In this document: one piece after another, positions 1,357 through 53,295 of the stretch | How positions within the stretch are numbered: the first letter of the stretch is position 1 | How the letters are laid out: the number at the start of each line of letters is the position of its first letter | Assembly: GCA_008632985.1 (NCBI GenBank) | Contig: QPGO01000030.1 | Coordinates: 557,135-621,134 of the forward strand | From: Psammoneis japonica | Lineage: Eukaryota | Direction: 5' to 3' | Length of the DNA: 64,000 nt | The notes under the pieces: model-generated | Told to the model about the DNA's origin: nothing | The model's input: the letters and a program-made list of their open reading frames with translations, nothing else | Database searches by the model: none | Translations under genes and position numbers: made by a program

Positions 1357-1669
1357 TAACTATCTCAAGAACGCGCTTCTCTCTCTTCTTTGCTTGTCTG
1401 TACGAGAAACGAGAATCGCGATATGACAAAATGACAAACCTTGTTAATCTTGCTGCGATACCTTAGTGGCTCACCTATCCACAATCTCATGTCACAGCGA
1501 ACGAGGCACTAACGACAACTTCCCTCCACCCTAACAAGAAATAACAGCAAGGAGGCGGGATGATCCCTGGACAACACACAACACAACACTCCCCTCCCCC
1601 CAGCTCAGGGATGCTTCTCGCAAAAGCGATCAACGCCTTAAGTGGAGTCTTGAACCACGACTACCCCAG

Positions 1670-1693
1670 AAAATACCAGGTTTACCCCAGAAA
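1670..1693 (+). repeat. Left target-site duplication AAAATACCAGGTTTACCCCAGAAA
   Basis: Identical to 4922-4945; preceded by partial unit TACCCCAG (1662-1669). Confidence 0.9.
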
Positions 1694-4600
1694 GCTGCTC
1701 TTACTCTTTGAAGCTCTCATTCTTGCTCCTGTCCCGCCACGCTCCAAGTTTGGCCCTACCATTGCCTCCCGCTTGTCCCTCTTCCGCCGTGGCTGCATTC
1801 GCCAACTCTACCACGAAGCCTGCTCCCATGCGCCGCGCCTCTCCTCATCTTCCCCCGACTTTTCTGCTTCCGCCTGTTGCTGCTCCGCTCAAGTCTGCGC
1901 CGACGAAGATGACTTTCACTCGGCCTGCTCCAAGCTCACCTCTGCGCTTCCTGTTGCTGCCGTTACTCCTGAGCGCCTTCCTGCCATCCTCAAGCTCTAC
2001 CCTCCTCGCCTGCACCCCTCCGACCCACCTGATCCTCCTTCAACTCGCTCGGCCTCCTCCCTTCACAATGAGCCTGTTGAGCTCTCCTCCGATGCTCTTC
2101 TTTCCGCTCTCTCCAAATGTAAGCCTGGGACTGCTGCCGGTGTCTTTGCTGATTCTACCGACCTTTTCAAGTCCTGCGCCCTCCATTCTGCCAAAACCCC
2201 AACAGGTGTTGCTCAACGCCCCTGCTTGTCATCCTTTCGTGAGCTTGTCCTTCTTCTGCTCCATGGCTCCATTCCTTCCTCAGTCCATTCCTTATTTGCT
2301 TCGAACTACTTTGTCGCTCTGCATAAAGATGCCAGCGACCTCAACAAACTTCGCCCCATTGGCGTCGGCACTGCTCTTCGTCGCATTGCCGGCTCCGTCG
2401 TCATGACTCTCTTTGGTTCTGCATTTGCCGAATGCCTCCTCCCAGATGGCCAATTTGGCATTGGTGTCAAAGGTGGCCTCGATTATCTCATTCACTCTGC
2501 TCTTGCCAACATTGAACGACATCTTTCTTCTGCCGACTCTGCCAAGGCTCTTCTTCTTCTTGACCTCGTCAACATGTTCAACGAAGCATCCCGAGATGCC
2601 TGTCGACACGTTCTCACCTCCACCCCTGCCTTCCATCCTCTGCTTCCTTTTTTTGACCTTCTGTGTCAAAGTTCCAATGCATGTTGGCATCGCCGACCCG
2701 ATTCTTCCTGGGGCTCCTTTCTTCAAGAAGAGGGATTTGCCCAAGGATGCCCTCTCGGCCCTGTCTTCGCCAGCCTGGTCCTCTCTCTGGTTCTTCGTCC
2801 GATTAACCAAGAGCTTCAAGAACGTATCCCTGGCCGTTCCTCTGTCTCAGTTGGCTCCTACATTGACGATGCTCACGCTTTCCTTCCCCATTCTGTGGCT
2901 CCCATGGTTCCTTGAACGCTTCTCCGCCCTCGGTGCCCCCTGCGGAATCTCCCTCAACCTCCGTAAAACCAAGATCCTCACCTCCATTGCTGGTGTTAGC
3001 CCCATCCCTGCTCTTCCCCCTTCCCGCGCCGATTCTCTCCGTGCTGCACTTTCCTTCTTAAACCCCACCAATGACCCCTCTTACAACCCCGAACTCACCT
3101 CTGGTGTTCGCTTCCTTGGACAGCCCCTCGGCTCCCACGACTTCGCCACCTCTTTCCTTTCCGACACTTCCTCCACTCTCTCCGACAAAGTTGACATGCT
3201 TCTCACCCGTCTCCATGACAAACAAACCCAGGCTCAACTCTTCAAGCACTGTTTTGTTCCATCCTCTGCTCACCTCCTTGGAGCTGACTTCCACTGCAAC
3301 TTCGACCCCGACAATCCTCCCGACCCCTTTCTCTGGACCTCTCCGTTTCAAGATTTCCTCCTCACCGTTGCTCACCGCTTTCTACACTACGTCACTTCCT
3401 TCGCCGCTCCTTTTCCCGACCATTCTATTGCCATCGCCTTCCTTCCTGCCTCCTCAGGCGGGTTTGGTCTCCGGGACCCAACAGCTGCCGCCATTCCTTC
3501 CTTCTTGGTGTCGCTTCTCCGCTCGTTCCGCTTTGCTTCGCACGGTGTCAGCCTGCCATCTGGCGCTTCTGTTTCCCTTCCGCGCTGCTTTCGGCTCTCC
3601 CTGTCTTCCTGGTCCAACCCTCGCTCTTCCCTGCGACTCCACACGCTCTTCCACCGTTGTGCTCCCGTTCTGGCTTCCGCCTCTGCCCTTTCCTCTTCTT
3701 CCTTGGCCACCCTGGTTAAATCGGCCACTCTCCCCGGCCTGGCCCGTCGTCTCCACCATGAACATCAGCAACAAGCAGTGACCTCCATCCTTGCTAACTC
3801 ATCTTACGACGTGCAATCTTCACTCCCCTCATTGCTGTCTCCGCTTACAAGCCTCCCTCTTCATTCCTTCTCTCGTCGCTTTCCAAGCTCCCGCCTTTCT
3901 TCGGACGCCTGCGCTGTTGCCGCCCTTCGTAAGCTTCGTCTCCCCATCCTTCCTCCGTCCCTTGTCAACACTCCCTGTCCCTGTGGCCATGCCATTCTGG
4001 ATGCCTGTGGTGATCATGCCTTTTCTTGCCGCCGTGCTCACAAGTCCAAGCTTTCCAATGGTCTCCGTGACGCTGTTTTCATCCTTGCCCAAACTTTGGG
4101 TCCTCTTGCAGAGTTCTGTCGATCCCCCAATGACGTTCATCTTGAACCCACCAACCTGCTCCCCACCCGCCTGCTTCTCCGTCCCGCCAATGTCGGCATT
4201 TCAATCCCCCCTCCCGCCTCCCTTTCTGCTCCCTCCCGCCATCACTGCATTGCAGTGGACGTCACCGTCCCTCAAGCTTCCTCTCGCCCTCCTCCAGGTC
4301 TGCCTGCCCCCTCTTCTCCTGTCTCAACTGAGGCACACCACTCGAGCGCGAGATTGAAGTTTCTTGGCCCCTCCACTTCCTCTGCCGATGGATCCCTTGT
4401 TGTTTCTTCGCTTGACAACAATGGCATCTTCCTGCTCCCCTTCACTGTAGATCACCTTGGTGGTCTCGGCTGCTTTGCCCACCGCTTGCTCTTTGGTTCT
4501 GCATCCCCCTCCGTCTGCTCTCAGCCCAAGCCACCCTGGTCCTCTTCCTCTGACCTTCGTCACTCCGATGCCTCCTGCTCCGCCTTCCTCTGCGCTTTGT

Positions 4601-4921
4601 CGTCTCCGTCTGCAGTCCTTCCCTCTGCTGACTCCGCATGGCGTCGCCTGTCCGCCGATCGCTTTGGAAGCACCCCACCGCACAGCCACCCCATCCCAGT
4701 GGGCCACCCAAACTCTTGGCTGCAACGTTGTTCTTCACCTTTCTACGCACATCCTCCGATTCACCTCCTCTCTCCCTGCCCCCTCCTCACCCATGCCTTC
4801 CACAAAACGCCCTTCGTCTTGCGTCCTTCGACCCTTTTACTCTGCCGTCTCTACAGCCACCTCCGTGCCTCCCTCTGCTGTTACCTTCCGCTCTACATAG
4901 GCTTCCTTAATCTTCTATTTT
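1694..4921 (+). mobile_element. 5'-truncated non-LTR retrotransposon, RLE type (CRE-like clade), frameshifted
   Basis: RT motifs LRPIGVGTALRR, QFGIGVKGG, LDLVNMFN, GFAQGCPLGP, SYIDD, GISLNLRKTK, GVRFLGQPLG, LPASSGGFGL. Zn knuckle CPC..DACGDHAFSC. RLE motifs RPAN(D)..AVDVTV..LLPFTVDHLGGLG. Frame switches near 2900 and 4675. Flanked by a 24-bp direct repeat. Sense strand is strongly C/T-rich. Confidence 0.9.
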
Positions 4922-4970
4922 AAAATACCAGGTTTACCCCAGAAAATGCCAGGTTTTACCCCAGAAAATG
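4922..4970 (+). repeat. Right TSD (4922-4945) within a ~21-bp minisatellite AAAATRCCAGGTTT(T)ACCCCAG
   Basis: aaaataccaggtttaccccag-aaaatgccaggttttaccccag-aaaatg. Confidence 0.9.
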
Positions 4971-7058: not shown

Positions 7059-8454
7059 GACCAAAACCCAAAACAAGCTCGAAGAGTTCGGTTCGAGATG
7101 TGCGATGGCTCCAACAATCAACAAATCAAAACAGACGCCAAAAGCCAACAAGAAACCCGGAAAGCTATGACCCTACTTGCCGCCTCCCGCGCGCAGCCCG
7201 CAGCCCGCGCTCTGCCAACACAGAACACCCCCAACACCATGACGACGGTTGTGTGGCAATTCTCAACACCGAGCGAAACGAAGACTTGTTTTGCAACGGA
7301 ACGGGTCTTTACAAATTACCATGGCATTACAAGAATCGGACATCATTTTTAAAGTGAGTGCACTACTCTACTATTGAGAGCATGACTCTTTTGGATGGAA
7401 GCCCCAAGCCCCATATGATTGTTCATCGCGTACTCATTTCTCTCTGTGTTCCTGCGTTCGCACCACATTACTCTCGATAACGCACGTCCCAACCGTTGCG
7501 GTGGTTCGAAACAAGACGGGACAAAAGATGATGGATTTAGGAATGCGTGCGATTGAATGAATTGAAATGGAAAACAATTGGTGGACCAGTGGCGAACAAA
7601 CAAATCGGGCCTGACAATCTACAACGTAGCGGTTGTGTCACTACTTGAATCCAAAACTGCGAAAAAGAAAATGTTCAATCATGCCACTGGAATCACTGCT
7701 TGCCTGCGACTGCGGCTAGTACGATATCGCAGCTACTGTGCAGATAGTGGCTCAAGCAGCTTTGAATCATTTTATACGCTTAAATGAAATGGAGGAATCC
7801 AACTTTTTCTGGCCCAACGACTGGTAAGTGTACGATCGTACCTTGTTGCACAGCCTCAAACCAGGAGAAGGCTTTGGCGTGGCAACGGTTATTCTTCTGG
7901 GCCGCCGTCGCAAGGGCTTTCCGCGTACTGGCGATTCCCACGCGACGCCAAACGGCAGACACGTATCCACCGAACGTGCACGTTTTGAACCTGCATCGAA
8001 TTTTGTACCATCCCAACTGTGACAAAGAAACTGCAGCATTGTACAGTGTAATCAAAGCAGCGAAAGATTTGTGGTTCTAGTTGAACACCGGCAGAAAAAC
8101 TGTTCGAAACGCGTGCCTTATCTCGAAGCATGGACGACATGGCGGGGTCTGATCGTTTCGAGGGACTGGGCCACAGACACGTCTCGGTCGACGCAGCTCT
8201 TTCCCTTTTCCTTGTTGCTCCCACTGCATTGGTCTTGTGATGGGCACATTGCTGGATTGTAGATTTGTGACAAGAATGCCAAGAGAGTACGCTACTACAA
8301 ACAACAACACGGCAAGACCGCATTGGCCGGCTCAAAAAATCCACACCGAACGCTTTGTCCGCTCTTAACCACCGACATTTCTCCGACAGGTCTCATTGCC
8401 CCGCACCAGCATGGGATGACCCAAGACCATCTCCAGTCCTCCAGTATCACCCAC

Positions 8455-8732
8455 CACCTCCACAGGTTGCATCTAAAAGATTACGCTCTGCTCCACAATG
8501 AACCGTAAAGCCAGCTTTTCTTGAAGCACCGTGCGACGGTTTCAAGATTGGAAGCAGCGACATTCAAAGTGCCGGTGGAGTAGCGATTTATCTTGCGTTT
8601 GCTTCATTCTGTGCGCAACTGATTGCAATGGCGTCTGTAGAATGCTTACTTCCACCTATGTTTCTTTCCAGTATCTGAAGACTCGGGTCTCACTCGTCTC
8701 GCTAGAGAGCCATCTCTTGGAACCTGTGCTGA
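8455..8732 (+). repeat. Dispersed repeat copy A (unclassified non-autonomous element)
   Basis: About 280 bp colinear with 12265-12542; both end in TCTCTTGGAACCTGTGCTGA. Confidence 0.85.
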
Positions 8733-9056
8733 AAAACGCATCTCGATCGGTGGCAAGGGTACGCGGTATTATAGTTTTTATCATTCGATGGAGCACCCCG
8801 CAAATTCAGCGGCCGGTCGTCACCAAAAGTATACCGGTCCAAAGTCTACGTGATCTCGGTGCCATGGAATAATAGTGTCTGTTTCGTGGTAATCGTTGTG
8901 CTTTCACTAATGCTGTCCTTTCGGCTTTTGGCAAGAATGAAATCGATGTTGTCATTAACGTGGCTGGGGGGCATGGTGCTATTTCTGCACTCATGCTTGT
9001 TACTACATCCGCGAACGATGCTGTCGTCATAGATCCAGCAAAGGTTGGAAACGGAG

Positions 9057-9176
9057 GCGTTTGGACCATACTATATCGGAAAAATTCTCCGCTACCGGCA
9101 AGAGTGCTTGCGGAAAAAAAGCGTTTGGACCATACTATCGGAAAAATTCTCCGCTACCGGCAAGAGTGCTTGCGGA
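9057..9176 (+). repeat. Direct duplication (58 bp + A6 spacer + 56 bp)
   Basis: gcgtttggaccatacta(ta)tcggaaaaattctccgctaccggcaagagtgcttgcgga occurs twice, separated by aaaaaa. Confidence 0.9.
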
Positions 9177-10951
9177 CAGGACTTCCGGAGGAGTTGAAGT
9201 TGCAACTAGGAAAGACTAGCAGAAGGCGCATCTTAGTGATCGCGTGTCATGCATGTCAACACCTTTCAGATGAAACTGTTCGCATTGCAATCGCTTTTGG
9301 CGTCCGTGTCGCAGTCATGCCTTGTTGTCAGAAGGACCAATCGCCGGGGCTTCCTGGAAGGCTGCGAGCAAGAATCTTTCGATTCCTGTTGAAACTGTCA
9401 TGGACATTTTACTCGCTGGTAAAGCCATGTCATGGGATATTGGTGCCTCATACGATATACAGAACAGAATCATTGTTTGCCGCGCAAAGGATGATGGTAT
9501 AGCTTCGACAACTACCCTGTCAGTTGAAAAGGCACACGAGAAGCTGCAGCAAGTGTATAAGAAGGCACACAGCAACAGCCAGAGGGAGAAGAGTCAATAT
9601 GGTACAAAAGTGACACGTGTTTCATACCAATGCCTTGCGAGTGGCGCTCTAGGATTCGCAAGTTGTTTCTTGGTGATGTGTTTGTATCGAAGAAAATAAG
9701 TCTCCAATTTGGATGCCCGAAACCGCGTCGTCCTACAGTGCAAAGAGGCAGGAGGATAGCGTGCCTTTCCGGCACCCTTAGGAGTAGGCAAAATGTTTTT
9801 CTGAAAGAGGTTGTTCGTAATCTAGTTGCTCGCGAGTCAACCCGTTTGAGCATCACGACCTCTGCTTGATGAATCATCGTCACTGGAGCAGCAAGGGTCC
9901 GACATATGAATCGATTTCTCGTCTGAACCAAGGTTTAAGATACCTGCAATTCTCTTGTCCCCTACATAAAGGACTAATCATGCTGGAGTCTTGCGGGGGG
10001 GATCGTAGGAGAGGACGACGGTACCTGGGTATGGGAACTTCACGGATTCTCATCGCCGAGCTTATCATCTGCTGTGCTACAGCAAACGGACAGTAAGGAA
10101 GCAAACCAGGACAGAAGTTACCAGCTCTCCCCAAGGGAATGTATCGAAATGTGATGGTGTTTGGTATTGGAGAGGACGGTCGAAATGCGCCTCGAGAAGG
10201 TAGAGTACACACGCGAAAAGTCCAGGCTACTGTATTGCCGCCACTGTTACAACAACCGAATTGGATCCGAGATTTAGTTCCAACAATGGTAAACATTTGT
10301 CTCGTTTCTACTTTTGTAACGCGTTAGGGCTGCTCTAGCAGAATGTCTCGTACCGTGGCCTATAACATGTCGGCAAATCGGATTGCGCACAATTACATTT
10401 CCAGTAGATGCCTTTTCAAGCTACAAGTCAACTAATGGTGCGCACCAAATACGCAAGGCAGTACCCGTTAACCAATGTTGGTGATTGCAAATAAAAGGGC
10501 AAGCGACGTCGGTTCTAGCTAGAGGAGCCATAGCAAAAGAAAGAATGGTGATTTTGATGTTGAGTAGGATTGCTCTATATTATATTTCCTTTTTTTGTTC
10601 TAAATTGCTGGATAGAGTAGAATTCTTCCCTTGATTACCAGTACTTCCCAACAACGATACAAATCGCATATTGAACTCTATGATCCGATGAGCTGGTCAC
10701 CACCGACTGATTCTTTTCAGTTGCTTCACCAAAATGGATCACGGTATCAGAGATACCTCTTCTTAAGAAGTAGAATTCTTCCGCAGTTTCGTCACGTTGC
10801 TACGAGTCGGTAAACCAGAAACTCAGAAACTCCATTCAATCCCATTGTAAGTTGCAATCCTTCCCTCGAGAACCCCTCTTGAAAACGTAGTGATGCCATA
10901 ACACAAATAGACTCTGCCGCAGGATGAATATTGACTGACCCCTGTTTGTCC

Positions 10952-12264: not shown

Positions 12265-12542
12265 CCACCACCACAGGTGGCTTCTAAAAGATTGTGCTCT
12301 GCTCCACAATGAACCGTAATGCCAGGTTCTTTGAAGCACCGAGTGAATTTTCAAAATTGGAAGTGGCGACATTAAAAGCACCGGAGTGGTGCCTGTTGGT
12401 TTTGCGTTTGCTCTTTGTTCCGTGCGCAACTGATTGCAATGGCGGCTGTAGAATGATTCTCTCCACCCATGTACTCTACCAGCATTTGAAACTAGGGTCC
12501 CATTCCTCTCGCTACAGAGCGATCTCTTGGAACCTGTGCTGA
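12265..12542 (+). repeat. Dispersed repeat copy B (TpA-poor; may extend 5' to ~11920)
   Basis: Homologous to 8455-8732. Confidence 0.85.
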
Positions 12543-21610: not shown

Positions 21611-22139
21611 CTTTTGGTTGCATGCAGACCTCCCAGTTGGGAGTTGGGGGTGGTTGATGTGGCAAATGTCGAAAGCGGAAATAAATCTTCCGGTGTCGGT
21701 GTCAAGCGGACCGCTGACAGAGTTCAAACATTCAAACATACATGGAAGGAGTAAGAACATTCCCTGCGAGAAATCGTCAAAAAATCAAAAAAAATCGCAC
21801 GCGCACGATTGAATTCGCCGTTTGACTCCACGCACAGTGCAGTACTGAGACTGTAGAGTGACCAGGAATGTTAAAAAACAGACCTGTTTTAACGGGATTG
21901 ATTCACTCGATTACAAGACCCATAATTTCATTAATGAATATAAAATATAAAGCCTCTCACGTGACTACAGCAACACGAAGTGGGCGGTCCTTCGAAAATT
22001 TTCTTTGTCGAAGAGGCATTTCCCCCTCTACCTGCAGTAAAGGCACCGTATTATGTTTAATTTCCGTTGACTGTGATTCTTTCATAACTGTTATTTTAAA
22101 TATTTTTTAAGGGTGGTCGGTTGCTACTTTTTTTAGCTC

Positions 22140-23020
22140 GAATTCGGCCGAACAGCTCGTGTTTTGCATGATTTTTCCTGAATTTCACCGTGCTTCACCG
22201 TGGTGAAAACAACAAGCCATAAGTCTGTGACGGAGGTGGTCCGTCTGCCAACTCTCATTTATTTTATGTTTGTTGTGTGTCAAAGATTGTGTGTGCATGA
22301 AAAGTTGGCAGACGGCAAACTGCGTTTTTGAGAAACATCGATGATTGTCATCATCGTCGTGCTTCGATCGCGGTGCTGATGGTTCTCGTTTTCATGCATG
22401 ATCGGGTGTGACTGTGAACAATTCTTGCATTCAAAAATAAACACCACAAAAAACCTCATTCAAATGCAACGGCAATTTTGGGACAAACGCGGGGATGACC
22501 CCCCTTGAAGATGTCCAAACCAAAATTCTAAAAACAGAATGAACGAGTTCATTGCTTGCATTGCCGACATGCATCGTTGCACATGTGTTTCAAAGTTGCA
22601 CGCAAGAAGCAAGAAACTGCAGCAGCACAATGATGCATGCCACCGGTGTCCCACTTTATGACGTGATGTCTCAATGATGCTTGCACCGATTTCTCCGTTT
22701 CTTTTTTCGATGTTGGGAGCAATTGCACAATGCACCCTGCTGGGTTGGTCTCGTTGTGTGTTGTCGAGAATTGTGGATTTCTGTTTTGTCCAAAAATCAC
22801 TCTCAGAACTGGCAAGTTAGACAGGTGCATTGACAACAGAATGAACGATCAAAGCATTTTTGACAACACTGAACACTTTTGACCAAACTGGCACAATGTG
22901 GCACCTTCAGTTGGGAGGTCAGTGGTTCAGCGGCGCCAACACATGACACATCATCTTCACCGAGATGATTGGGCGTGGGCAAATGCGTCTCAATCGTGTC
23001 TTCTCAGTCGGGCTCGCGAC
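22140..23020. repeat. TpA-depleted degenerate repeat/TE relic
   Basis: Only ~7 TpA seen, all in TAA/TTA; rich in TG/CA; no intact ORF. Confidence 0.55.
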
Positions 23021-23035
23021 CTCTAGCTGCTAGAG

Positions 23036-23773
23036 TGCAAGCAAAAAACCGGTCTGTCCTCTTCCGACCGGTCTGTCCTCTTGCAAGAGCAAACTGTGTA
23101 AAACCACTCTAAGAAAGGCTTCCCGTTGTTACACATGCAAACCCTGTCTGCTGGCATCGGTCAGAAGGTCAACAGAGATCTTTGCGAAAACAGCGGGCTA
23201 AAAGAGTGTTGCATCATGGCACATTGGGGGCCAAAAGCGGCACATCGCCATTTTCTAAGAAAAATCTACCGTTTGAGAATTTACACAGATTTTCTATCAT
23301 TAATTATCCTCATTGATGTATGTTTTTTAGATGTCCATTTCCAATTCGTGACAAATGCCTGCATACGAAATGCGAGTAATAAGGCAAAACAACAACGAAT
23401 GAGAGCTTATGGACCCGCATTATTCGATACGAGTGTGTATTATGGACTTGCCATTCTGCCCTTGCGAGAGATAATGGCTAAGCGATTGACGAAGGATGCA
23501 AAAAAAAACTGTGTAAATTTCTCGGTATGTTGCCACGTAGAAATCTACTGACGACCGGTCTGTCCTCTTGGAACGAAAAAAGGCCCTTCTTGCGATAGTA
23601 ACAATGGTGTTCAGAACCGTGAACCTGGCAAATACAGGCATAGGAGCACGTCAATTGACAATGTTAGAAGACGTAAGAAGCATTGCACAGTGAAAAGCGA
23701 ATCGATTTTGGAAACAAAATCGACTTTTACACAGATGCCAAAAGGCAGAGGACAGACCGGTTTTTTACTTGTA
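23036..23773. mobile_element. Non-autonomous TIR element (MITE), 27-bp TIRs, sub-terminal repeats
   Basis: Left TGCAAGCAAAAAACCGGTCTGTCCTCT (23036-23062); right, reverse-complemented, TACAAGTAAAAAACCGGTCTGTCCTCT (23747-23773). Internal GACCGGTCTGTCCTCTT at 23066 and 23553. TAGAG on both flanks (23031-35, 23775-79). Confidence 0.85.
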
Positions 23774-23914
23774 GTAGAGAGAGCGTATGACAACTACCAC
23801 TGCATTCATCAGAACCCTCCCGTCTGACACGATCAAAGTCCGCGAATTGTTGTTCGCTTTCTACTTGTGTAAGAGCACATGCTTCTCAACAACAATGACA
23901 ACAACAAAAACAAA

Positions 23915-24695
23915 ATGAGGATTGCTTTTTCCTTTCTTACTTTTATGATTGATGCTGCTACAGGTGTGGGAGTTAGTGCATGTGATCCCAACCCATGCAT
24001 GAACGGAGGGACGTGCTCGGATACACTTGGCGGGTTTTCTTGCGTTTGCTCCGAAGGGTTCACAGGCAGGAGATGCGGAGCATTGATGCCAGGCATGCGC
24101 AGCCTCCTACTAGATACGTGCGAACCAAACCCATGCCACAACGAAGGGACATGCGAGCACACCCTTGGCGGATATCACTGCCATTGTGCCGAGGTGAGTG
24201 ACACAGTTGCGGGTCGTACATGACAGGGACAATTCTTTTTCTAATTGCTGTTTTCTTTCTTTTTAGGGATGGGAGGGGACGAATTGTACGGACGAGTCAA
24301 CCCAATTCCCTTACGACACGTGCGAACCCAATCCATGCCACAACGAAGGGAACTGCTCGCACACCCTCGGTGGCTACCGTTGCTCTTGTGCAGAGGGATG
24401 GGAGGGGACGAATTGCACGGACGAGTCAACCCAACTCCCTCATGACACGTGTAGACCCAATCCATGCCACAACGAAGGGAACTGCTCGCACACTCTCGGT
24501 GGCTATCGTTGCGCTTGCGCAGAGGGATGGGAGGGGACGAATTGCACGGACGAGTCAACCCAACTCCCTTATGACACGTGCAGACCCAATCCATGCCACA
24601 ACGAAGGGAACTGCTCGCACACCCTCGGTGGACATCATTGCTCTTGTGCAGATGGATGGGAAGGAATAAATTGTACGGAGAACAGGAGCAACTAA
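23915..24695 (+). CDS. Small secreted protein of five tandem EGF-like domains; exons 23915-24193, 24267-24695
   Basis: Signal-like N-terminus; CDPNPCMNGGTC..FSCVCSEGFTGRRC. After the GT-AG intron the frame reads (GWEGTNCTDESTQxPYDTCxPNPCHNEGNCSHTLGGYRCSCAE)x3 and ends at TAA 24693. Exon 2 is absent from the ORF track. Confidence 0.88.
24267..24680 (+). repeat. 129-bp coding tandem repeat, about 3.2 units
   Basis: Units start at 24267, 24396, 24525, 24654 and are near-identical. Confidence 0.92.
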
Positions 24696-30480: not shown

Positions 30481-30777
30481 TTTCCCGCAATTTTGTTTTC
30501 GATTCTGTCCGACTATTTCGACTGAACAAGTCTATTTCAGTATGTGAGTTGTCGTATGTACAAATTGTAGGGAGTCATACGTGGGTGGCGCTTCACCACT
30601 CATTTTATTTTCAATTTTTTATTCCCTCCAACCTCCAGGATCCATCACGAACACAATCAACAAAACGCGACACTGCTTGACCTATTCCTATCCTCTACTT
30701 TGCCGCCCTTTTCAACTTTCGGTTTATGCTGTTCGAATTTTTTGCGTCTCGGTTGTAGAAACGAAAGCGCCTTGATC

Positions 30778-32649
30778 ATGGACGACTTGTTCAATCTTCT
30801 GTCGTCGTCTGCTCGCATTGATAAATCGAAACGTTCCAAGAAGCGTAGTCGCCCAGTACCTGTAGCGGCATCTTCAACTTCTTCAGTCGCTAGAAAACCT
30901 CAAAGCAATAGCAGTGATGATGAAAGTGACGATAGCTCTGTAGCAAGGAGTCCGCAGAAGATCGCATCTCGAGATCGTACTGGAAAGCGAGATTCATCGG
31001 AAGCCAAGCAACAACAGATTCATCGCGAGCAAATGGCTGCGTTCCGAAAGTCCATGTCGATCCGATTAGCGAACAAGCACGATCCAAATGTGCCTGACCC
31101 CGTGTCGTCCTTTGCTGAACTTGCGGCTCCGTCGTGGTGGTCCACTACTCGTGAATTTGAAACCATCCGACGAGCCATTGTGAACAACGTGGAACAGGGG
31201 AAATGGAAGGAGCCGACGCCCATTCAGATGCAAGCCATGCCCTCGCTTTTGGAGCGGCGGGACTTGATTGGAGCCGCACCAACAGGATCCGGAAAATCTG
31301 GAGCTTTCATCATTCCTTCACTATTAATCAGTAGCGTTTCTCACGACGTGTTTTACGCAACTCGAGCAACGTCGAAAACGAAATCAAAGAAACGCCCGGC
31401 CAAAAAGTTTTCTCGTGATGGAGAGATACGATGCCTCTTGTTGGCTCCTTCGCGCGAACTCGCTGCTCAGTTGTATCGAGAAGTGGAACGGCTTGGGATG
31501 GGGAAGCCAGGTGGACTTACCTCTCTGTTGCTCTCGAAATCGAACGCATCCCACGTCATTTCTGGTAGTGCCGGTGGGAAGAGCGGATTAGATGTACTTG
31601 TGACTACGCCGCTGAGGCTGGTTGATTGCGTCGAAAAAGGCCTTGATCTCCATTCCGTCAGGCTTGTTGTATTGGATGAGGCCGACCGGCTTCTAGATGC
31701 AGCTGACGGTAATCGTAACAAGCAAGCCATTGGAAACTCCGCCGACGAAGTTGCAACAGACGAAAACAATTCCGAAAAGAAACGAAAAGCAGATATAAAA
31801 GGAGGCGAGAAAGAGTCGGGATCATCACAATCGCAGTCATTTTTGGCGCAAATGGACACGATATTCAACGCCTTGCCCGCTACAGCTACTCGCTCTCTAT
31901 TCTCCGCCACGGTCACTCCGACTGTCAGGTCGCTTGCAGAATCAATATTGCGCAACCCCGTCGATGTTACAATCGCCGCCCCTGGAACCATTGGCGGGGC
32001 GAACAAAGATATTGATCAGGAATTGACGTTCGTGGGACGGGAGGAAGGTAAACTCCTGGCGATCCGGCAGCTCGTACTGAGAGGACAGCTCAAGCCACCA
32101 GCCATTGTGTTTGTTCAGAGCCAGGAACGAGCACAGGCGCTTTTCAGCGAACTCTTGTACGATGGCATACATGTAGATGTGATTCATGCTGGTCGATCGC
32201 GGTCTGCTCGTGACAATGCCGTCGCCAAGTTTAGACGTGGTGACACGTGGCTTCTCATTTGCACTGACCTTGTAGCTCGTGGCGTTGACTTTCGAGCGGT
32301 GAATATGGTTATCAACTATGACCTTCCTGCATCGGGAGTGACTTACGTTCACCGCATCGGCAGGACCGGACGAGCGGGTCGCAAGGGAAAGGCGATTACG
32401 CTTTTTACAGAAGCTGACTTTGAAAACTTACGAACCATCGCAAATGTCATGAAGTTGAGTGGTTGCGAAGTACCGAGTTGGATGCTCAACATGCGCCGGA
32501 GCAAGAAGAAAGGCAGCAACCCTCACAGAATGAAGATTGACACCACCCCATCGTATGACAGGAGGAAACGTTCCCATAAACAGCAAAGCATTCAAAACAG
32601 CAAGAAGAGGAAGCGAGAAATGGAGGGAAAGAGCCGGGTGGAAGAATGA
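30778..32649 (+). CDS. DDX52: DEAD-box RNA helicase DDX52/Rok1
   Basis: EPTPIQMQA, APTGSGKS, PSRELA, TTPLRL, DEAD, SAT, PPAIVFVQSQERA, ARGVDF, HRIGRTGRAG, IANVMKLSGCEVP. Confidence 0.93.
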   Translation: MDDLFNLLSSSARIDKSKRSKKRSRPVPVAASSTSSVARKPQSNSSDDESDDSSVARSPQKIASRDRTGKRDSSEAKQQQIHREQMAAFRKSMSIRLANKHDPNVPDPVSSFAELAAPSWWSTTREFETIRRAIVNNVEQGKWKEPTPIQMQAMPSLLERRDLIGAAPTGSGKSGAFIIPSLLISSVSHDVFYATRATSKTKSKKRPAKKFSRDGEIRCLLLAPSRELAAQLYREVERLGMGKPGGLTSLLLSKSNASHVISGSAGGKSGLDVLVTTPLRLVDCVEKGLDLHSVRLVVLDEADRLLDAADGNRNKQAIGNSADEVATDENNSEKKRKADIKGGEKESGSSQSQSFLAQMDTIFNALPATATRSLFSATVTPTVRSLAESILRNPVDVTIAAPGTIGGANKDIDQELTFVGREEGKLLAIRQLVLRGQLKPPAIVFVQSQERAQALFSELLYDGIHVDVIHAGRSRSARDNAVAKFRRGDTWLLICTDLVARGVDFRAVNMVINYDLPASGVTYVHRIGRTGRAGRKGKAITLFTEADFENLRTIANVMKLSGCEVPSWMLNMRRSKKKGSNPHRMKIDTTPSYDRRKRSHKQQSIQNSKKRKREMEGKSRVEE

Positions 32650-43380: not shown

Positions 43381-45671
43381 ATGGCGTTGCTGGATCCAGA
43401 TCTGACGTTTGCTAGTTTGGCAGATTCAGTAGGACTTGATGTTCGATTACGCAAATCTGTATCGAGGTTGGGGCACGTCCGTCCAACTCTTGTGCAGTCC
43501 AAGTGTCTTCCCCTGGCCATCTCGTCGGGACGCGACTTGCTTGTTCGTGCCCGAACCGGCACAGGCAAGACCTTGGCTTATTGTTTGCCTCTTTTGAACA
43601 AAATCTTGCAAGATACTAACACCCAATCGAGGTCGTCGGAACAATTCGTCCGTGCTATTGTGCTTGTACCGACTAGAGAACTCTGCAATCAGGTGTTCAG
43701 AACTTTGGAGGGCTTGACTTATTACTGCAACGAAGTCGTTGCCCTGGCAGTCTTGTCCGGTGGTGGTCGGGGGCAAAGTGAAAAAGTGCAGGAAGATATT
43801 GCAAGACAAGAAGCCTTTCTGCGCGATCGACCTGATGTAATTGTCGCAACACCTGCAGGGTTACTTTCGCATATTAGGAGCGGAGTGCTGAATCTAAAGT
43901 CATCGGTGGAGACTCTGGTTGTCGACGAGGCTGATCTTGTACTTTCTTTCGGTATGCATCCTCCTCTTTCATGCTGTAGGGCCTATGTTGTTCATTAATA
44001 CGTCGACTGACCATCGCTTATTCAATCTCTCTTGTTCACGTCAATTGATATAAAGGCTATGCGGACGATATTGCTGAAATTATGAAGTCGCTCCCAAAGA
44101 TCTGTCAGGGCTTCCTAATGTCAGCTACATTATCACCAGAACTGAACTCTCTGAAAAAAGTGGTCCTGCATTCTCCCGCCGTACTGAAACTTGAGGAGGA
44201 GGAGACAGACGTAAATCGTAAGGATGGGCAGCTTTCGCAGTTCTATTTACAGCTACCAAAGAAGGATAAGAACTTGGTTCTTTACGTCTTTTTAAAGGTG
44301 TGTATCTGAAGTCGCCGTATCGTTTGAAATGAAGAGTGGCCCCGTTAATTCTTTACCTGATCCCTTTTCGTCATGTACTCAGCTTGGACTTCTCAGAGGC
44401 AAGGGTTTGTTCTTTGTCAACTCTACTGATGCTGGCTACCGTCTCAAGCTCTTTCTTGAACAGTTTCATATACGATCAGCGGTATTGAACGCAGAATTAC
44501 CATTTCACAGTCGATTGAATATTCAAGAACAGTTCAATGTTGGGAATTTCGACTATTTGATTGCCACGGATGAGAGTGCTGATGTGGGTAGATCCTCGGA
44601 GGAACTTGACGATCAGGAAGGGAAGAAAAAGAGGAGGAAGAAGGACTCAGAATATGGTGTTTCGAGAGGTCTTGATTTTCGGAACGTCTCGTTTGTTGTT
44701 AACGTCGATTTTCCTTCGACTATTTCGTCTTACACCCATCGAATAGGACGTACGGCCCGTGGAGGTGCAAAAGGTGTCGCACTTAGTTTGATCGAAGCTG
44801 AATCCTATGATCAGAACGAGCTACTCAAGAAGGTGCAGGAAGATCAACCATCTATCGCTCTCTCTTCTGTTAGCAATGATACCTTGCACGCTCAAACTAT
44901 GACGGAGGATGCCGTTTCTGCTGCGCCACAACCTGACCGTCAGCCTCAGCCGTCACCGTTGGACTTTGATCTTCGCGAAATAGAGGGATTTCGCTATCGC
45001 GTAGAGGACGTTTCGAGAGCAGTCACCCGAGTAGCTGTGCGAGAGACCCGTGCTGCGGAGCTTCGCGCCGAAGTGTTAAACTCAGACCGATTGCAAAGCC
45101 ATTTTGAAGAAAACCCAGAAGATCTGCAGATTTTACAGCACGACCGAGTTGCGACACATGTGGCAAAGATCCAAGACCACCTAAAGTGAGTAGACGTATG
45201 AGCAGGTTGTGAATCAACGAAATACCGGCTTGGGCAGCTGTGCTAAACCTTATGTGCTTCTCCTTTCACCTACCTGTGCATAGGCACGTTCCAAAATACA
45301 TGCTACCTCGTGGCATGCAAGTTGCAGAATTAAATCGGAAAAGAAAAAAGCGGCGCGTGCGCAAACATGGGGCTTTAGGTCAGCGTCGAACAGACAACGA
45401 CCCACTCCAATCATATGGTGGTGTCGATGCTAATCTTGACGGTGTCGAAGGAACAGGTGACGAATTTTCTGAGTTCTTTCACGACGACAGTAGCGATGCC
45501 AACAAAGGACGAGACAGCGATAAGGAAAAGGAGAGCAAGGTGTTCGTCAATACTGCTGATGGAACTGGTAGTAGTACCGCGGGCCGAAACGCGTGGAAGG
45601 AAAAGCACAAGAAGGGGAAGTTTAGTAGAAAGAAACGTAAAAGAGATCGCGGAGAGACGCTTGGCTTGTAG
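43381..45671 (+). CDS. DDX56: DEAD-box RNA helicase DDX56/Dbp9; 4 exons
   Basis: PTLVQSK, ARTGTGKT, PTREL, DEADLVLSFG|Y, LMSAT, YRLKLFLEQF, LNAELP, EYGVSRGLDF, HRIGRTARG, EGFRYR; introns near 43952, 44298, 45187. Confidence 0.95.
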
Positions 45672-45815
45672 ATGTGTGGTACTGATAGAGAACTGGGCCA
45701 TGGTATCCTTCCTTCGAACGCTTTTAACTAGTCCTTAGAACACTACTTTGCTCGTCTCACCATTCACTGTATGCACGATGCACCTTCTGCTGTCCGCTCT
45801 GTTGACAACGCCAGT

Positions 45816-48800
45816 CTAAGCCACCCCATCGAGTATCTCGCCCACAAGCGCTCCCAAGTCGGTTTCATATCTGTCAGCATCTAGAAGCTGAATTTCATTC
45901 CGAAGCTCTTTTGCGGCACGACCAGAAAGACGTTCGCATAACATCCAAATGCACTTTGCCTCAAAGAACGCTGCACGTGATTTGTCATCCTTGCTCCGCT
46001 TTCCTAGACTTTGCAGAAGCTTCGTTCCCATTACCACAGATGCTTGCTGATTAGCACTGATGGCCGAAAGAGAAGCTTTGATGCTACCCTCCTCTTCCGA
46101 AAACAGTACGTCAAATGTGTCGGGAAGATGGTGCTCTTCATTCGAATCTGGCGGAGTCCCTTCGACGATTTCATAGACCGATTCCAGAATAGCATCAACT
46201 GATCTTTCCATCATTTTCACACCATCCCCGTCATTCCCTGACAAGATAGACGTTACGGTTCTTCTAACAATTCCAAAATCGTAGTCTACTTCCAATTCTT
46301 TGGCATTGAGGACAATATCCTTCAACAATTGAAAATTGCTACCTTGCCTGCATAGCTGCACTGCGAGACGGCAGAGAGCCGGTAGTACCTCATTCTGCAA
46401 AACAAAAGATTCCGATGAAAGCGACAGCACCCGGCACCACTTGGACGCGTTAAATGAGATTTCCTGAACACCTTCACCCCCAATGGCAAGCCACTCTGAG
46501 AAAATGAAACAGGAAGACTTGATCAACGAAAACGTCGCCGCCAGCGAAAGGTAGTTCGAGTTTCCCTCCGAGCCGATAGACATCCTGTCGTGATCCGCAA
46601 GGGACTCAAAGCTCGTATTGAACTTTATAGGGGTGCTGTTTCGGTTGGCCCTCCGTCGAGGAGGCTCCATTGGTGTGGGGGAGCCTGGTGGCATCGGCGA
46701 ATCGGCAGAGGACGAAATCCGTGAGATGTTTAGATCTTGCAGGGAATGATTTCTACCGTCAACAGCAGCGAAGATGATAGGGACCACTTTTTCTGTTGTC
46801 CAAGAGAGCAGAGTTCTGGCCTGTGGGTCGAGCCTGAGGGGGGCATCTCCCACAGCCTGTTTGTGCATGATAAGCCTCCCGTAGGCTTCGCATGCCTTGA
46901 GAACAAAACAGACGTCTGATTCTTCTACCACCCGACCGAGGACCTTAATAATGTAAAAAAATGACAAAAAGCGATAGGGATGAGCGTCATTCGGAGAAAA
47001 GGGAACAAAACTCTAGATACACTATACTTACTGGATCGGCCATTAGGATCCTTTCTGCATGGACCGTGGCAAGCTCAAGAGCACGTTCAAAGGCACTACA
47101 TGCCGACGTGCTCTGAAGAAGAGACGTTCTCGCTGCAATACTACTTGGATCATGGCCACAGAGTATATTTTCCAGCGTGTCGAGAGCAACGTTTGGCGGA
47201 AGACGAGGAACTACGTCGAAAGACTCTTTATCAGTACCACTGCCTCTTGAAGCTTTCCTTTTGTTCGAGTTCCCCACGCGCTCAAACGACATGGCGTTCT
47301 CGTTTCCAAAAGCTGACTCAATTGACGAAGAAAGAGACCTTGCAACATCTTCGGTCAAGCCCCAGAGGCAAAGAAGAGCCACATGCGGGGAAAGATTTTC
47401 AAGGGTGGAATCGGAATCTCCGGAAGACTGGAAGGCGGCTAGTTTCATACGAGTAGTCAAATGAGAAGATAGGCCTTCTACAGACTCCGGCGGGAGTCTT
47501 CCGGCGCAGCGAAGAATAGCCGCACAAGCACGAAAGCATTCCTGCCGTACGAGAGCGCCTCTTTCTTCCGAGACGTCTTGTTCGTTGGCTTTCTGCTCAA
47601 AATGAGCGTGTACCTCTGTAAGAACTACCCCGGAGAACGCATCCCTGAGAAAGTCGTTGCATGGCTCGTTTTGTGGCTCGTCCAATTCATTCTCGATCTA
47701 AAAATCAGCATAAGAGCGAAAAAAGAAAATAGAAACATCAGACGACTCGGGGTACTTTGCGTAGGAGAAGCGATCCACAACGACACAGCTTCATGCAATT
47801 TCCTTACCGAATCCCATAGAGTACAAATTGTCTCCGCAACAGTCGCCATCATTGCTGTGTTTGACGCCGTCAGCGTTCCCTGGGCATTAGTACCGGTAGC
47901 ATTGTCTTCCTCCGACTGCCGAGATCCGTATCTCCTCCTTTTCTTGCTTCCCTGGTTCTTCCGTGCTTGCGTCTTATCAGCTTCGACTGCGGCGCTAAGA
48001 CACCGAAGAAGCATTGCTGCCAGTTTTGACACGGAGTTAACGTTGAGGTGGAGTGCAACATTGCAATAAAATACAGCAGCAGCTTGCCGATGTGTAGCCA
48101 GAAAGGAAAGAGTGCGGTTGATCTGGTCAGAGCCTGAAACGTTCTCTCCCTGAGGGAAATACGAATTAAGCATCAACGACGTCAAAGCCGACGTGACAGG
48201 ACCTTGTGGGTTCCTAGGAGAGCGACCTTCTTCAGCTAATCTTGCAAGGAGGTGATCTACAGGCACGACATGGTAGTATTTGATACCACGGATAGTTTTG
48301 ATGCGAAGAAGCATTCGAATGACAGCAAGACGAACTCGCTCCACCTTGTCGTGGATCATATTTCCTAGTGCCGGAAGCAGAGGTCGAAGAACGGCATGGG
48401 ACTGAGGAGCATCAAGAAGCGTCGTGACTGAATTCACAGCTGCAGCGCGAACCGCCGAAGATGACGAATCGGAGGCGAGCTCCGTCACGATGTCTATCGA
48501 AAGTCGAACGGAAATGGGGGAAAATGATAGTTGAAAATACATGGAATTGAAATAATCTGCATGGACAGAGAAGAATGTTGACCAAGCACTTACGATTCAT
48601 AAGAGTGCGAATATCGGTCGTTGAGAGCACATCCCAAAATCTGGTCAGAATTTTAGCGGTGGCTGCAGCGCCTGCGATCCGTATTTTCGGGTCCAAATCG
48701 ACAAGCAAACTCTCAAGAGCTGTTGTTGCCTTCTTCACCGATTGTTCAAGCTTCACATGATCAGAAGATGGGTCTTGTAGAGGAAATACTTCAGCAAGAA

Positions 48801-50148
48801 TATGAGCAGCATTGCTACGAACAGCTGAATTCGCTGCTTTTAATGAACGCCAGAGGATGGGGCCGTACATTCTGTGCAAGAGTTTTTCGACGTCCTGGGT
48901 CTTCTGTGCATCGTGGAACGGCTTGAGCACGATGTGTAGAGATTTGCTCATGGAAGGGCCCGCAATATGGAGGACTGCATACATCAAATCTTGCAGGGCG
49001 AATTCTTCGATTGACGACCTTGTGATTGATCCTGGCTCAGATTCCATCCAGGCTCTGAAGTAGATATCTCCGTATGATTCAAGGATGGTCTTCTTTGCCT
49101 CGGGGATTTGCACTCTGATCGCTGTATGGAGGTCACGCACAAGAGATTCATGCAGGGAGAAGAAGTAGGCAATAAGCCTTTTTCCTTCGGTCATCCGCAG
49201 ATAAAGGGGACTGGAGACGGTCCTTAGTACAAGCGAAAGCAAATACGCAATCGATTCCTCTTCAAAATCCAATAACTTAAACGCTTCTTTGACCGTGAAC
49301 AGGCGCTTGATATCGCTCTTCTGAGCCGATCCATCCAGGCTTTTTACAACCAAGAATGGGATCAGCTGAACGACCATGTAGTCCTTGTCGACGAAGTTGT
49401 TCTGCCACCACTTTTCGCAAAGAGAGGCGACTACACCTTGTACTTGCAGGCCCTCTGCCCCACAGTAGGATTGCAGAGAGAAAAGCACATCGTGCAACAT
49501 CTCACCGACCACAAAAACCTCATCAACGACACTATATGTTTTCCCAGGAGGATCGTTCTCAGATCGACGGTCGACGAGTCCATCAAGGTATGCGGAGACG
49601 CAGAACGCACATGCTTTCATGAACAAGAGTGCCTCTGTAGACTCGGCGTCCGGAATGATATCTTTGGTGTCGCTGATGGAACTCGAGGATTTTCTTTTGG
49701 AATTTTCGTTGCTGAAGCCTTCGTTTTCTTCTTCATCCTCGTCGTCGCTCTCATACGCCGATACCGGTACGTAGTCTTCTTCGTCGACAATCCTCTTGAG
49801 AATACCGCTCATAGCTGCGAAGAACCGACGAGCGTAGCCCTTGTGAAACTTGTGCGACCGGATGGCACCGAGAAGCGTCTCTTTCTGGTCTTGAGCTGAC
49901 ATGGTGACACGATCTTGTAGTGTGTTTGCTTCGGGGGAAAAAAAGAGCTTCACCAGCGGACTGCATGACAGAAGTCGTTCGGTGCCATCAGCTCCGCCTT
50001 CAACAGCCGCGAAAAGCGCGGCTCGAACGACTGTTTCGTCAATGTCAAGGCTTTCATCTCCTACAGATACTACTTCGTGTTTGCTGCCGTCGTTGCTGAT
50101 CTCCGCTTGAGATGCACCGTTGCCTTTCATCTTAACGCCGCCGCCCAT
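45816..50148 (-). CDS. NCAPG2: Condensin II HEAT subunit CAP-G2; 4 exons
   Basis: LCEKWW, EGKRLIAYFF, YGDIYFRAW, IEEFALQDLM, PILWRSLKAANSAVRSNA, EVFPLQDP, HDKVERVR, IKYYHVVPVDHLLARL. Confidence 0.9.
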
Positions 50149-50576
50149 TGTCGAGGGAAAATCTGACAATCAGACTTCGGCACAAACGGTCAAAACTGGA
50201 ATTCAAAATGCGCTACTGTACGTAGCTTTTCTAACGGATCGTACGGTACATTCGAATGACGATCTAACGGTCGGTTCATTCCATTTATTAAAAGTTTTGA
50301 ATATGATCATAATGAGTTTCGCGTGAGATGAGCGACGCAGGTGCGGCAGGGCCAGACGAGCTCGTTGTCTATCTGGTCGAGTTAGTCGAAAATCCTCGCA
50401 CCGCACACTCACACCCATCACGCACGATGCACGCACCACGCACCATGAACCATGATGGAGACCTCATGACAACGCCGCGATGCATTGAGCCAATTTACTG
50501 TACATGATGTGTCGACATCAATGACACCATTTAAGCATTGCACACTCTTGCGCTTGTTATTTTAATCCCAGCCATC

Positions 50577-52126: not shown

Positions 52127-52912
52127 CTTTGCTGCTTTCTTTTGCTTCTTCAATACAGACTTGGAAGGAGGTTTGTCATTTTCTATCGCCTTCTGGGCGC
52201 TGTTTTTCCACTTTTGAATGGCGCAGGATTGTTTTTCGGTGAAACCGATAATTCCCATTCTTTCATCCGCGCACGTACAATCCAGGAAGGTCAACGCTTG
52301 GCGAGCAACGTCGGCTCCACATCTTTTGAAATACCCAGGCTTGGCTCCGCTGAGAGGGCCACTCTGTAAGGCGAGCTGTACAAGCTGAAAGACTGCAAGC
52401 GACATCGCACGACATTCTTCTGGGTCAAGCTCATCCTTCGTGTAGTGCGAGAATATTGCGACACACTCATTGGCACAATTGTGCACCGCATGCAACACAT
52501 TTTGCTGCCACGTGCTTGGATTAGATATAGAAACCGTAGAAAGCTGAATTGATTCTTGTACGTTTCTCATTCGACGGTTCAAGTGCTGTATCTCCCGATG
52601 GGAAGGAAATTCAACTGCAGAGTCGTCGTCATTTGATGCATCAGCAGTACGTGTACTACCGTTTACACCTTCGTTTACAGTATTCTGCATTATTTTCAGG
52701 TCTCCGTGCAAATGCATAGATTTCTTCTCGTCTGCAATAGCTTCGACTTCTTGCTGTTGGTCATCAATTTGTTGACGAGACGGTCCAGTTTTCTTTCGTC
52801 GGCGTGCTTGATGCTTGTTTATGTTACTATCTGTAGGACCTGCGCGACCCCGAAACGTTCGACGCGACCCATCGATAACTGATGCAGATCTCATACCGGA
52901 ACGAGACGCCAT
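52118..52912 (-). CDS. Hypothetical protein
   Basis: About 264-codon ORF with an ordered-looking core (LALQSGPLSGAKPGYFKRCG) and a basic tail. Confidence 0.6.
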   Translation of the reverse strand: MASRSGMRSASVIDGSRRTFRGRAGPTDSNINKHQARRRKKTGPSRQQIDDQQQEVEAIADEKKSMHLHGDLKIMQNTVNEGVNGSTRTADASNDDDSAVEFPSHREIQHLNRRMRNVQESIQLSTVSISNPSTWQQNVLHAVHNCANECVAIFSHYTKDELDPEECRAMSLAVFQLVQLALQSGPLSGAKPGYFKRCGADVARQALTFLDCTCADERMGIIGFTEKQSCAIQKWKNSAQKAIENDKPPSKSVLKKQKKAAKSK

Positions 52913-53295
52913 TCTGCCAAACAAAACCAACTCCGCAACAACAATAATTGAAGTATCTAATGCAAGGACGACACTACTCATCAACACAAGACACAAGCAC
53001 CACGACGATCACGTCAGACGTGAGGGACGTTGTGCGAGAGGGCAGGACGACGGACGATACAGTATGAAAGCGCGGGAAAGGAATGCCAGCGTGACGCCGG
53101 CAATGCAATGCCTGATTCGATCAATTTGAAATATTCATGACGCACCATGGGAATGACAGAGGCCTTCGCGCCATTTTCAACACGCATCAACGAAAATGAC
53201 AGCAACCAGCTTCCATCCAGTGTGGAGAAACAAAACTTCGCCAGAAGGAGCGATTGCTGCATCCTGAAACCGTCAACGCTTTATCGAGATCAATC

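Follow-up and report, generated by a model that had tools for sequence, protein, structure and literature searches.

TpA-directed hypermutation has been described in the chlorarachniophyte Bigelowiella natans, in whose mutation-accumulation lines 231 of 302 nuclear point mutations were located either in the region of an integrated giant virus or in that of a virophage (Mettrop et al., bioRxiv 10.64898/2026.01.13.699255). According to the main text of this preprint, all but one of the 231 mutations were A>G or T>C, all of these on TpA; the rate was ∼1000 times the genomic one, and only some of the lines were affected. An ADAT2-like adenine deaminase acting on DNA was proposed by its authors, and the reverse-transcriptase (RT) and DDE Pfam families were reported to be enriched among the TpA-poor coding sequences (bioRxiv 10.64898/2026.01.13.699255). 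In the main text the terms context, flanking, trinucleotide, tetranucleotide and neighbo- do not occur, flanking bases are not dealt with and diatoms are not mentioned; the supplements may hold flank information. No second report of TpA-directed hypermutation was found in full-text searches of the literature, and nothing relevant for diatoms. Here, we describe three TpA-depleted tracts in a 64-kb stretch of the Psammoneis japonica assembly (contig QPGO01000030.1, positions 557,135 to 621,134; this whole stretch, numbered from 1, is called the window), together with the sequence context of the few TpA that remain in them.

The signature used in the preprint is a depletion of TpA together with an enrichment of CpA+TpG in 1-kb windows; it was computed here with Rho in the usual observed/expected (O/E) form. 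Under the preprint's rule, the consecutive windows 58001-59000 (TpA/CpA+TpG, 0.03/1.74), 59001-60000 (0.02/1.83) and 60001-61000 (0.21/1.59) form a cluster, and 22001-23000 and 63001-64000 pass the thresholds as single windows. Tract 1 (positions 22140-23020) is intergenic and contains 7 TpA where ∼65 are expected (O/E 0.11), with values of 1.62 for TpG, 1.67 for CpA and 0.89 for CpG. Tract 2 (57900-60750), also intergenic and poor in CpG, has 6 TpA in the interval 57930-60630 against ∼162 expected (O/E 0.04; TpG 1.81, CpA 1.70, CpG 0.23). Tract 3 (63056-64000) runs past the end of the window and retains 2 TpA of ∼57 expected (O/E 0.03; TpG 1.89, CpA 1.99, CpG 0.44). For comparison, the TpA O/E was 0.52 for the whole window and 0.70-0.74 for its non-coding part. 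A two-state hidden Markov model (HMM), which scores only whether T precedes A and is blind to flank context, recovered the three tracts with borders at 22267-23022, 58100-60721 and 63069-63997, as well as a fourth at 1821-4837, which corresponds to an RT element discussed below.

The TpA that are missing from the tracts reappear as the two transition products. The surplus of TpG+CpA (∼70 in tract 1 and ∼254 in tract 2) approximately equals the TpA deficit, to which the CpG deficit is added in tract 2. TpG and CpA were counted 95 and 85 times in tract 1, 281 and 309 times in tract 2, and 124 and 104 times in tract 3; they are interleaved without strand blocks, and runs tests gave z values of +1.2, -2.3 and +1.1, respectively, compared with -0.4 to -2.0 for three coding controls. 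Since CpG is normal in tract 1 while TpA is almost absent, the loss of TpA is separate from the decay of CpG. The CpG loss in tracts 2 and 3 is probably the ordinary decay of methylated CpG, which yields the same two product dinucleotides; as the sole cause of the tracts, this decay is ruled out by tract 1.

When compared with B. natans, as far as the main text of the preprint describes it, the tracts show the same features: TpA appears to be the sole target, TpG or CpA results according to the strand affected, the changes are limited to certain regions, and the long-term dinucleotide trace is the same. The depletion, however, is far deeper (O/E 0.03-0.11, against a Rho of 0.45 for the nucleocytoplasmic large DNA virus region of B. 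natans), and the host is a diatom, not a chlorarachniophyte. Moreover, the target in B. natans is integrated viral DNA in which mutation was seen de novo, whereas a trace in the sequence is what is available here. The tracts are best regarded as a further instance, much more advanced, of a process so far known in a single other lineage, and the flank rule described below is a new property of TpA hypermutation. Fungal RIP (repeat-induced point mutation) is likewise a regional form of transition hypermutation, aimed at a dinucleotide in repeated or foreign DNA, that leaves a skewed dinucleotide index. In its described form, however, RIP turns CpA/TpG into TpA, whereas in the tracts TpA is turned into CpA/TpG, and only one copy of a duplicated segment is affected; with TpA at 0.03-0.11 and CpA and TpG at 1.6-2.0, RIP was rejected as running in the opposite direction. 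By the genetic code, the change of TpA to CpA or TpG should never create a stop codon, whereas RIP does.

To characterize the TpA that remain, each was recorded with its two neighboring bases. In the three tracts, 18 of the 19 residual TpA were TAA or TTA. The preliminary description had listed about seven such sites in tract 1; there are exactly seven, and all of them fit: 22220 ATAA, 22260 TTAT, 22265 TTAT, 22438 ATAA, 22529 CTAA (given there as 22528), 22657 TTAT and 22818 TTAG, of which 22260 and 22265 lie 5 bases apart and are possibly not independent. The contexts it had named for tract 2 were likewise recovered in 10 of 10 cases (CTAA three times, GTAA twice, TTAG three times and TTAA twice), as were the two sites of tract 3, 63361 (CTAA) and the exception 63765 (CTAC). 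The latter belongs to a tandem duplicate with a 16-nt unit (63759-63790, plus strand; 2.0 copies, 87% matches): it lies in copy one, and copy two reads CTGC at this place. Grouped into strand-symmetric classes, the survivors comprise nine CTAA/TTAG, five ATAA/TTAT, two GTAA/TTAC, two TTAA and one CTAC/GTAG, and no other V-T-A-B (VTAB; V, any base except T; B, any base except A). The rule is strand-symmetric, as had been stated, in that a 5' T becomes a 3' A, and vice versa, when the opposite strand is read.

Several controls were used for comparison. Of the 2132 TpA found elsewhere in the window, 806 are TAA/TTA (Fisher p = 3.4e-7). In a non-coding proxy, defined as the sequence outside stop-to-stop open reading frames (ORFs) of at least 100 aa, outside the tracts and outside the RT element, the proportion is 185/480 (p = 7.1e-7), or 290/726 with a 150-aa mask (p = 1.1e-6); tabulated by NTAN context for this window, the residual TpA of the tracts are not distributed as in control non-coding DNA. 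An upper-bound expectation of 0.53, taken from the TT and AA frequencies of the tracts themselves, gave p = 1.1e-4. When the HMM borders were used, 9 of 10 residual TpA were TAA/TTA (p = 1.2e-3 against 0.385). Correction for the 14 possible strand-symmetric flank rules leaves a p of ∼1e-5 with the borders of the preliminary description. Considered by half-site, the immediate neighbor (on either strand) is T in 20 of 38 cases, compared with 22% in the control (p = 4e-5); the second flank base shows a weak effect (16/38, p = 0.04), and the third and fourth bases show none.

The preference is nevertheless relative. Based on tract composition and on the context shares of present-day non-coding DNA as the starting point, ∼210-284 TpA would be expected in the three tracts, that is, ∼81-109 TAA/TTA and 129-175 VTAB, of which 18 and 1 remain. 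Approximately four fifths of the TAA/TTA have thus been converted as well. VTAB stands as the preferred substrate, as had been proposed, in view of the survivor bias over the non-coding control, but only in a relative sense. In a first-order decay model, a conversion rate of VTAB ∼3 times that of TAA/TTA (rough range 1.5-8) would explain the survivors. That protection is not absolute had also been concluded from a change of GTAA to GCAA in a terminal inverted repeat, and this was borne out: the left arm of the miniature inverted-repeat transposable element (MITE)-like unit at 23038-23771 has GCAA where the complement of the right arm has GTAA, and GCAA is also read at 57936 in the data set described next.

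A deep public DNA run with a word depth of ∼60, here called X1, was used to examine the assembly, and its contigs were aligned to positions 44001-64000 of the window; X1 is possibly the assembly's own source sample and so not fully independent of it. It contains 98% of the sampled words from 56500-62500. Three residual TpA of tract 2 are read differently in X1. GTAA at 57936-57937 is read as CpA (GCAA; 57936 T>C, full contig depth of 64.7 of 64.7), CTAA at 59125-59126 as TpG (CTGA; 59126 A>G, 62.4 of 62.4), and TTAA at 60206-60207 as TpG (TTGA; 60207 A>G, 62.4 of 62.4). The fourth difference in tract 2, 59116 A>G, is not at a TpA, so that three of four differences are TA>CA/TG. X1 thus has CA or TG at 3 of 10 TpA in tract 2, whereas none of the 572 TpA that these 20 kb contain beyond the tracts is read in this way (Fisher p = 3.7e-6); counted by base, tract 2 differs at 3 of 20 TpA bases and at 1 of 2831 other bases. 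Such a restriction to the TpA of the tract is what the hypermutation model predicts and, because the differences at TpA are confined to the tract, the process would be recent or ongoing. When only the TpA confirmed in X1 contigs were considered, plus tract 1, TAA/TTA accounted for 15 of 16 (p = 6e-6). The summed X1 contig depth, which is not equal to copy number, was 209 at 59342-60008 and 189-318 at 62677-64000, compared with ∼60 elsewhere, and loose contig ends were found at 58659, 59403, 62980 and 63020; depth and loose ends together hint at additional copies, similar in sequence, of some parts of tracts 2 and 3.

Within tract 2, a TpA-free copy of a gene segment could be compared with its normal counterpart. 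Positions 58083-58307 (minus strand) contain a diverged copy of the 5' end and upstream sequence of a methyltransferase gene, 73.6% identical to 62703-62906 (plus strand); the latter is the normal copy, in which the Methyltransf_32 ORF 62075-62896 (minus strand) begins and which extends into the sequence upstream of it. Coded as purines and pyrimidines, the pair is 85% identical and scored 182 bits, compared with at most 70 bits in 20 simulated queries; in a self-BLAST of the window coded in this way to see through transitions, no other pair rose above noise. The normal copy has nine TpA, eight of them VTAB. All nine are lost from the tract copy: two became TG, two CA, three TT and one AA, and one is poorly aligned. 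Of the 17 CpG of the normal copy, 2 are retained unchanged, and 40 of the 56 substitutions in the well-aligned core are transitions. The Methyltransf_32 domain was found in at least two ORFs of the window, 8960-9502 (plus strand) and 62075-62896 (minus strand), and a 280-bp pair (8454-8732 and 12265-12542, 80% identical) is located near the former. Together with the partial copy in tract 2, these look like a small, recently duplicating gene family.

The best overall explanation of these observations, to which we assign a probability of roughly 0.65, is a locally targeted TpA hypermutation whose flank-dependent rate leaves TAA and TTA as slow substrates. According to this explanation, the tracts would be silent-looking non-coding DNA of a diatom-like genome, maybe partly multi-copy, in which a locally targeted process turns T:A into C:G at TpA on both strands, giving CpA or TpG. 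A 5' T or a 3' A directly at the TpA would lower the conversion rate approximately three-fold, and almost only TAA/TTA would remain because slow substrates outlast a near-complete erasure; the leftover sites would still be undergoing conversion. The agent may be a DNA-modifying enzyme directed to particular chromatin, and the process may serve as a defence against repeated or foreign DNA. That an enzyme is responsible for the erasure of the tracts is a reasonable inference, because the loss is sharply bounded, affects one dinucleotide and is strand-symmetric, because the X1 differences are confined to the tract, and because the same signature arises de novo in B. natans. The preliminary description had reached this conclusion, as opposed to compositional drift, from the flank context; the conclusion draws more support from these other grounds, and the flank bias alone is insufficient for it, since DNA shape could produce the same bias.

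Several observations weigh against this explanation. The rule was noticed and tested on the same 19 sites of one window, and with the strictest choices, HMM borders and the expectation of 0.53, p is only ∼0.02. Exactly one protective flank is present in 16 of the 19 survivors and TTAA occurs only twice (p = 0.002 against independent flanks); a multiplicative two-flank model fits poorly, and 'VTAB or not' describes the survivors better, but so few sites do not allow more to be made of it. Divergence between the two paralogs amounts to 26%, and no more than four of the nine lost TpA became TG or CA. The X1 differences, which are not polarized by an outgroup, may be collapsed alleles, culture or preparation drift, or assembly errors. 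As regards a foreign or transposon origin, none of the 18 six-frame translations of the three tracts (stops as X, E ≤ 0.1) matched Pfam, one piece of tract 2 stems from the 5' end of a host-type gene, and the MITE-like unit at 23038-23771 has a normal TpA density (24 against 38 expected in 23001-23500), so that not every mobile element is TpA-erased. Nor was the pattern seen again in related DNA: in five metagenome loci (33,150 bases) related through the DDX52-like helicase ORF of the window, no TpA-poor, CA+TG-rich tract was found, which is too little DNA to exclude the process in relatives. The HMM marked one 224-base segment each in two of these loci (L004 and L005), with identical figures (TG+CA 35 against 28 expected).

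The flank bias by itself could also be a matter of DNA shape, if a TpA abutting an A-run or T-run were stiffer or less accessible, so that any TpA chemistry would be slower there. Several survivors are indeed located at junctions of T-runs and A-runs, and the weak T enrichment at the second flank base points in this direction. The effect, however, is essentially a first-neighbor one, absent from the third and fourth bases; many survivors lie outside runs (for example GCTAACC and AGTTAGC), and shape would account for the flank bias alone and not for a regional, dinucleotide-specific erasure. We therefore regard it as unlikely. The chance that the residual TpA are new mutations, which arose after a complete and context-blind erasure and whose context reflects their creation, appears slimmer. 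At 58094, a survivor that reads TTAG on the plus strand and CTAA on the aligned strand stands opposite CA in the normal paralog, the CTAC at 63765 has the tandem twin CTGC, and each of the two might have arisen newly by G>A or C>T. Yet context-blind creation and removal would predict ∼40% TAA/TTA, not 18 of 19. The possible sources of a new TpA in the tracts are compatible with TAA/TTA in 218 of 510 CA, 230 of 516 TG, 142 of 392 AA and 132 of 354 TT (36-45%), so that context-dependent removal is needed in any case; if new VTAB sites were quickly re-erased, newcomers would become the main explanation.

Chance in a small sample is very improbable, even though there are 19 sites, a post hoc rule and a p of ∼0.02 under the strictest choices: the other controls gave p values of 1e-4 to 7e-7, and the direction is the same in each tract (7/7, 10/10 and 1/2) and in the RT element (15/25). 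An artefact, by which the TpA-poor state or the residual TpA would stem from errors of assembly or base calling, for example at modified bases, would be consistent with the 3 of 12 TpA in tracts 2 and 3 that X1 contigs do not support, but X1 reproduces the tracts with even fewer TpA, and the other nine, eight of which are TAA/TTA, show no difference in X1; we consider such errors a highly improbable cause. Equally little weight can be given to selection, whether TA was purged against TA- or TTAA-targeting transposons or nucleases, or TAA/TTA was kept in functional motifs. The survivor at 22438 does lie within an AATAAA-like word. No coding (Pfam) or RNA (Rfam) family was found in the tracts, however, and TTAA, the target of piggyBac-type elements, is present among the survivors. 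Furthermore, what has been gained is precisely TG and CA, the transition products to be expected of a mutational process, and in B. natans this signature appears de novo through neutral mutation (bioRxiv 10.64898/2026.01.13.699255, main text).

With regard to the chemistry of the proposed hypermutation, a candidate, and the one put forward for B. natans, is the deamination of adenine in a 5'-T-A context to inosine, which is copied as G. The oxidation of thymine to a base that mispairs with G would be an equal candidate, and the two are inseparable by sequence, A>G and T>C being a single change viewed from opposite strands. The self-complementary four-base preference would fit either a symmetric reader of double-stranded DNA or an enzyme that acts on single strands and disfavors T at -2 as well as A at +1. 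The A-to-I deaminases (ADAR; ADAT2/3, TadA) share with the tract process a 5' T/U before the edited A, which they prefer or require. The same 5' neighbor is present at U33-A34 of the tRNA anticodon loop and in the YAC preference of TadA-derived base editors. To our knowledge, the known preferences of A-to-I deaminases do not include the avoidance of a 3' A or of a T at -2. A 5' U/T is the preferred context of ADAR as well (Discussion of bioRxiv 10.64898/2026.01.13.699255). ADAR-like editing of an RNA intermediate followed by reverse transcription was ruled out, given that it would mark one strand and that TG and CA are equal and interleaved. Dinoflagellate 5-hydroxymethyluracil may favor TpA; no literature connecting the two was found. 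Among the ORFs of the window, no deaminase and no TET/JBP-like gene was found.

The fourth HMM tract corresponds to a decayed RT element at 1560-4923 (plus strand), with an RVT_1 match in which YIDD is intact with TAC; the match ends at a stop codon close to 2915, and a second frame (2413-4923) carries the protein on. The element is flanked by a shared word at 1668-1690 and 4922-4945. C and T strongly predominate on its sense strand (GC skew -0.39, AT skew -0.36), and the TpA O/E of the element is 0.20. Between 1821 and 4837, 25 TpA were counted against 122 expected, of which 15 are TAA/TTA (p = 0.024); the less depleted element thus shows a weaker flank shift in the same direction as the tracts. 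Its CA+TG value is only 1.15-1.37, below the second threshold of the preprint. The residue composition is 0.8-1.8% Tyr, 2.9-3.3% Cys and 4.2-4.4% His, compared with 0.9-2.1% Cys and 1.5-2.8% His in five host ORFs. Such a gain of Cys and His and loss of Tyr is what changes of Tyr (TAY) to Cys or His (TGY/CAY) would give, and the same process may, with some uncertainty, have acted here; the remaining Tyr codons, seven of which are CTAC, were probably kept by past selection. No relative of the RT ORF was found among the viral contigs searched.

The MITE-like unit, 734 bp in length, directly adjoins tract 1, and its terminal inverted repeats measure 28 nt (93% complementary) and 37 nt. For tracts 1 and 2 themselves, no convincing terminal inverted repeats were found, and the TAGCT present at both edges of tract 1 is within chance. 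A tblastn search of the window ORFs against the tracts gave, among the matches listed, only self-matches and matches at chance level. A tandem array at 23987-24679, with a period of ∼129 bp and copies 90-91% identical, adjoins the MITE-like unit and tract 1 and overlaps EGF-domain ORFs (23873-24220); it is a repeat-built gene for an extracellular protein. The ORF 53706-54314 (plus strand) belongs to the uracil-DNA-glycosylase superfamily (PF03167, E = 3e-19), some members of which excise hypoxanthine from DNA and would in this respect matter for a process based on adenine deamination; it is regarded as an ordinary repair gene in a coincidental position.

The window has a G+C content of 49% and contains many long ORFs encoding ordinary eukaryotic proteins, including nicastrin, a condensin-II subunit, Vps53, two DEAD-box helicases, a protein kinase, a TLDc protein, a two-pore potassium channel and EGF-repeat proteins. 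The closest named relatives of the DDX52-like helicase (ORF 30700-32649) are all raphid pennate diatoms (Cylindrotheca, Nitzschia, Amphora, Seminavis and Fistulifera) with 58-65% identity, and environmental sequences reach up to 75%; the sole named match of the condensin subunit is from Cyclotella. Judged by these homologues, the organism is a diatom and probably a pennate one. No Rfam match was found in the whole window. In a second run, X2 (catalogued 'DNA?'), contigs covering positions 44001-64000 have eight joints at which 81-238 nt with GT..AG or CT..AC ends are skipped, for example 44295/44381, 45185/45284, 51586/51676 and 55039/55278. Because such stretches are skipped, the window has short spliceosomal introns and X2 resembles a transcript assembly. 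The summed X2 contig depth over 58008-60675, to which the same reservation as to copy number applies, was 0, 12, 12 and 0, with loose ends at 59042 and 59668, and is not interpretable as expression. Clusters of differences between the assembly and X1 were observed at 54319-54383 and 53601-53691; one has half the depth (29.8 of 62.1), which two alleles would give, and the other cluster is intronic and includes small insertions. These clusters suggest a diploid, moderately heterozygous genome.

For annotation, the loss of TpA, the gain of CA+TG and residual TAA/TTA together provide an index by which such tracts can be identified. Long open frames in TpA-erased DNA are no evidence of function, nor do those of the RT element prove that it is active, because the change of TpA to CpA or TpG makes no stop codon and removes TAA and TAG; by our estimate, ORFs of the length seen in the tracts are expected by chance where TGA is the only stop. 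A further-reaching proposal, which we put forward tentatively and hold to be rather doubtful, is that diatoms have an active, chromatin-targeted DNA-editing defence of the B. natans kind, possibly ancient within the Stramenopiles-Alveolata-Rhizaria group, that erases TpA with a catalyst reading the self-complementary V-T-A-B. If so, the catalyst would either recognize double-stranded DNA or be a deaminase or oxidase with preferences at -2 and +1 unlike those of any characterized ADAR, ADAT or TadA, and the differences between the assembly and X1 could represent ongoing editing or a modified intermediate base that is read differently by different chemistries. The APOBEC enzymes, like RIP, were told apart and assigned by their neighbor preferences. 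A first handle of this type on the catalyst is now given by the flank rule, and a TpA footprint in a diatom-like genome would make this hypermutation a wider eukaryotic phenomenon.

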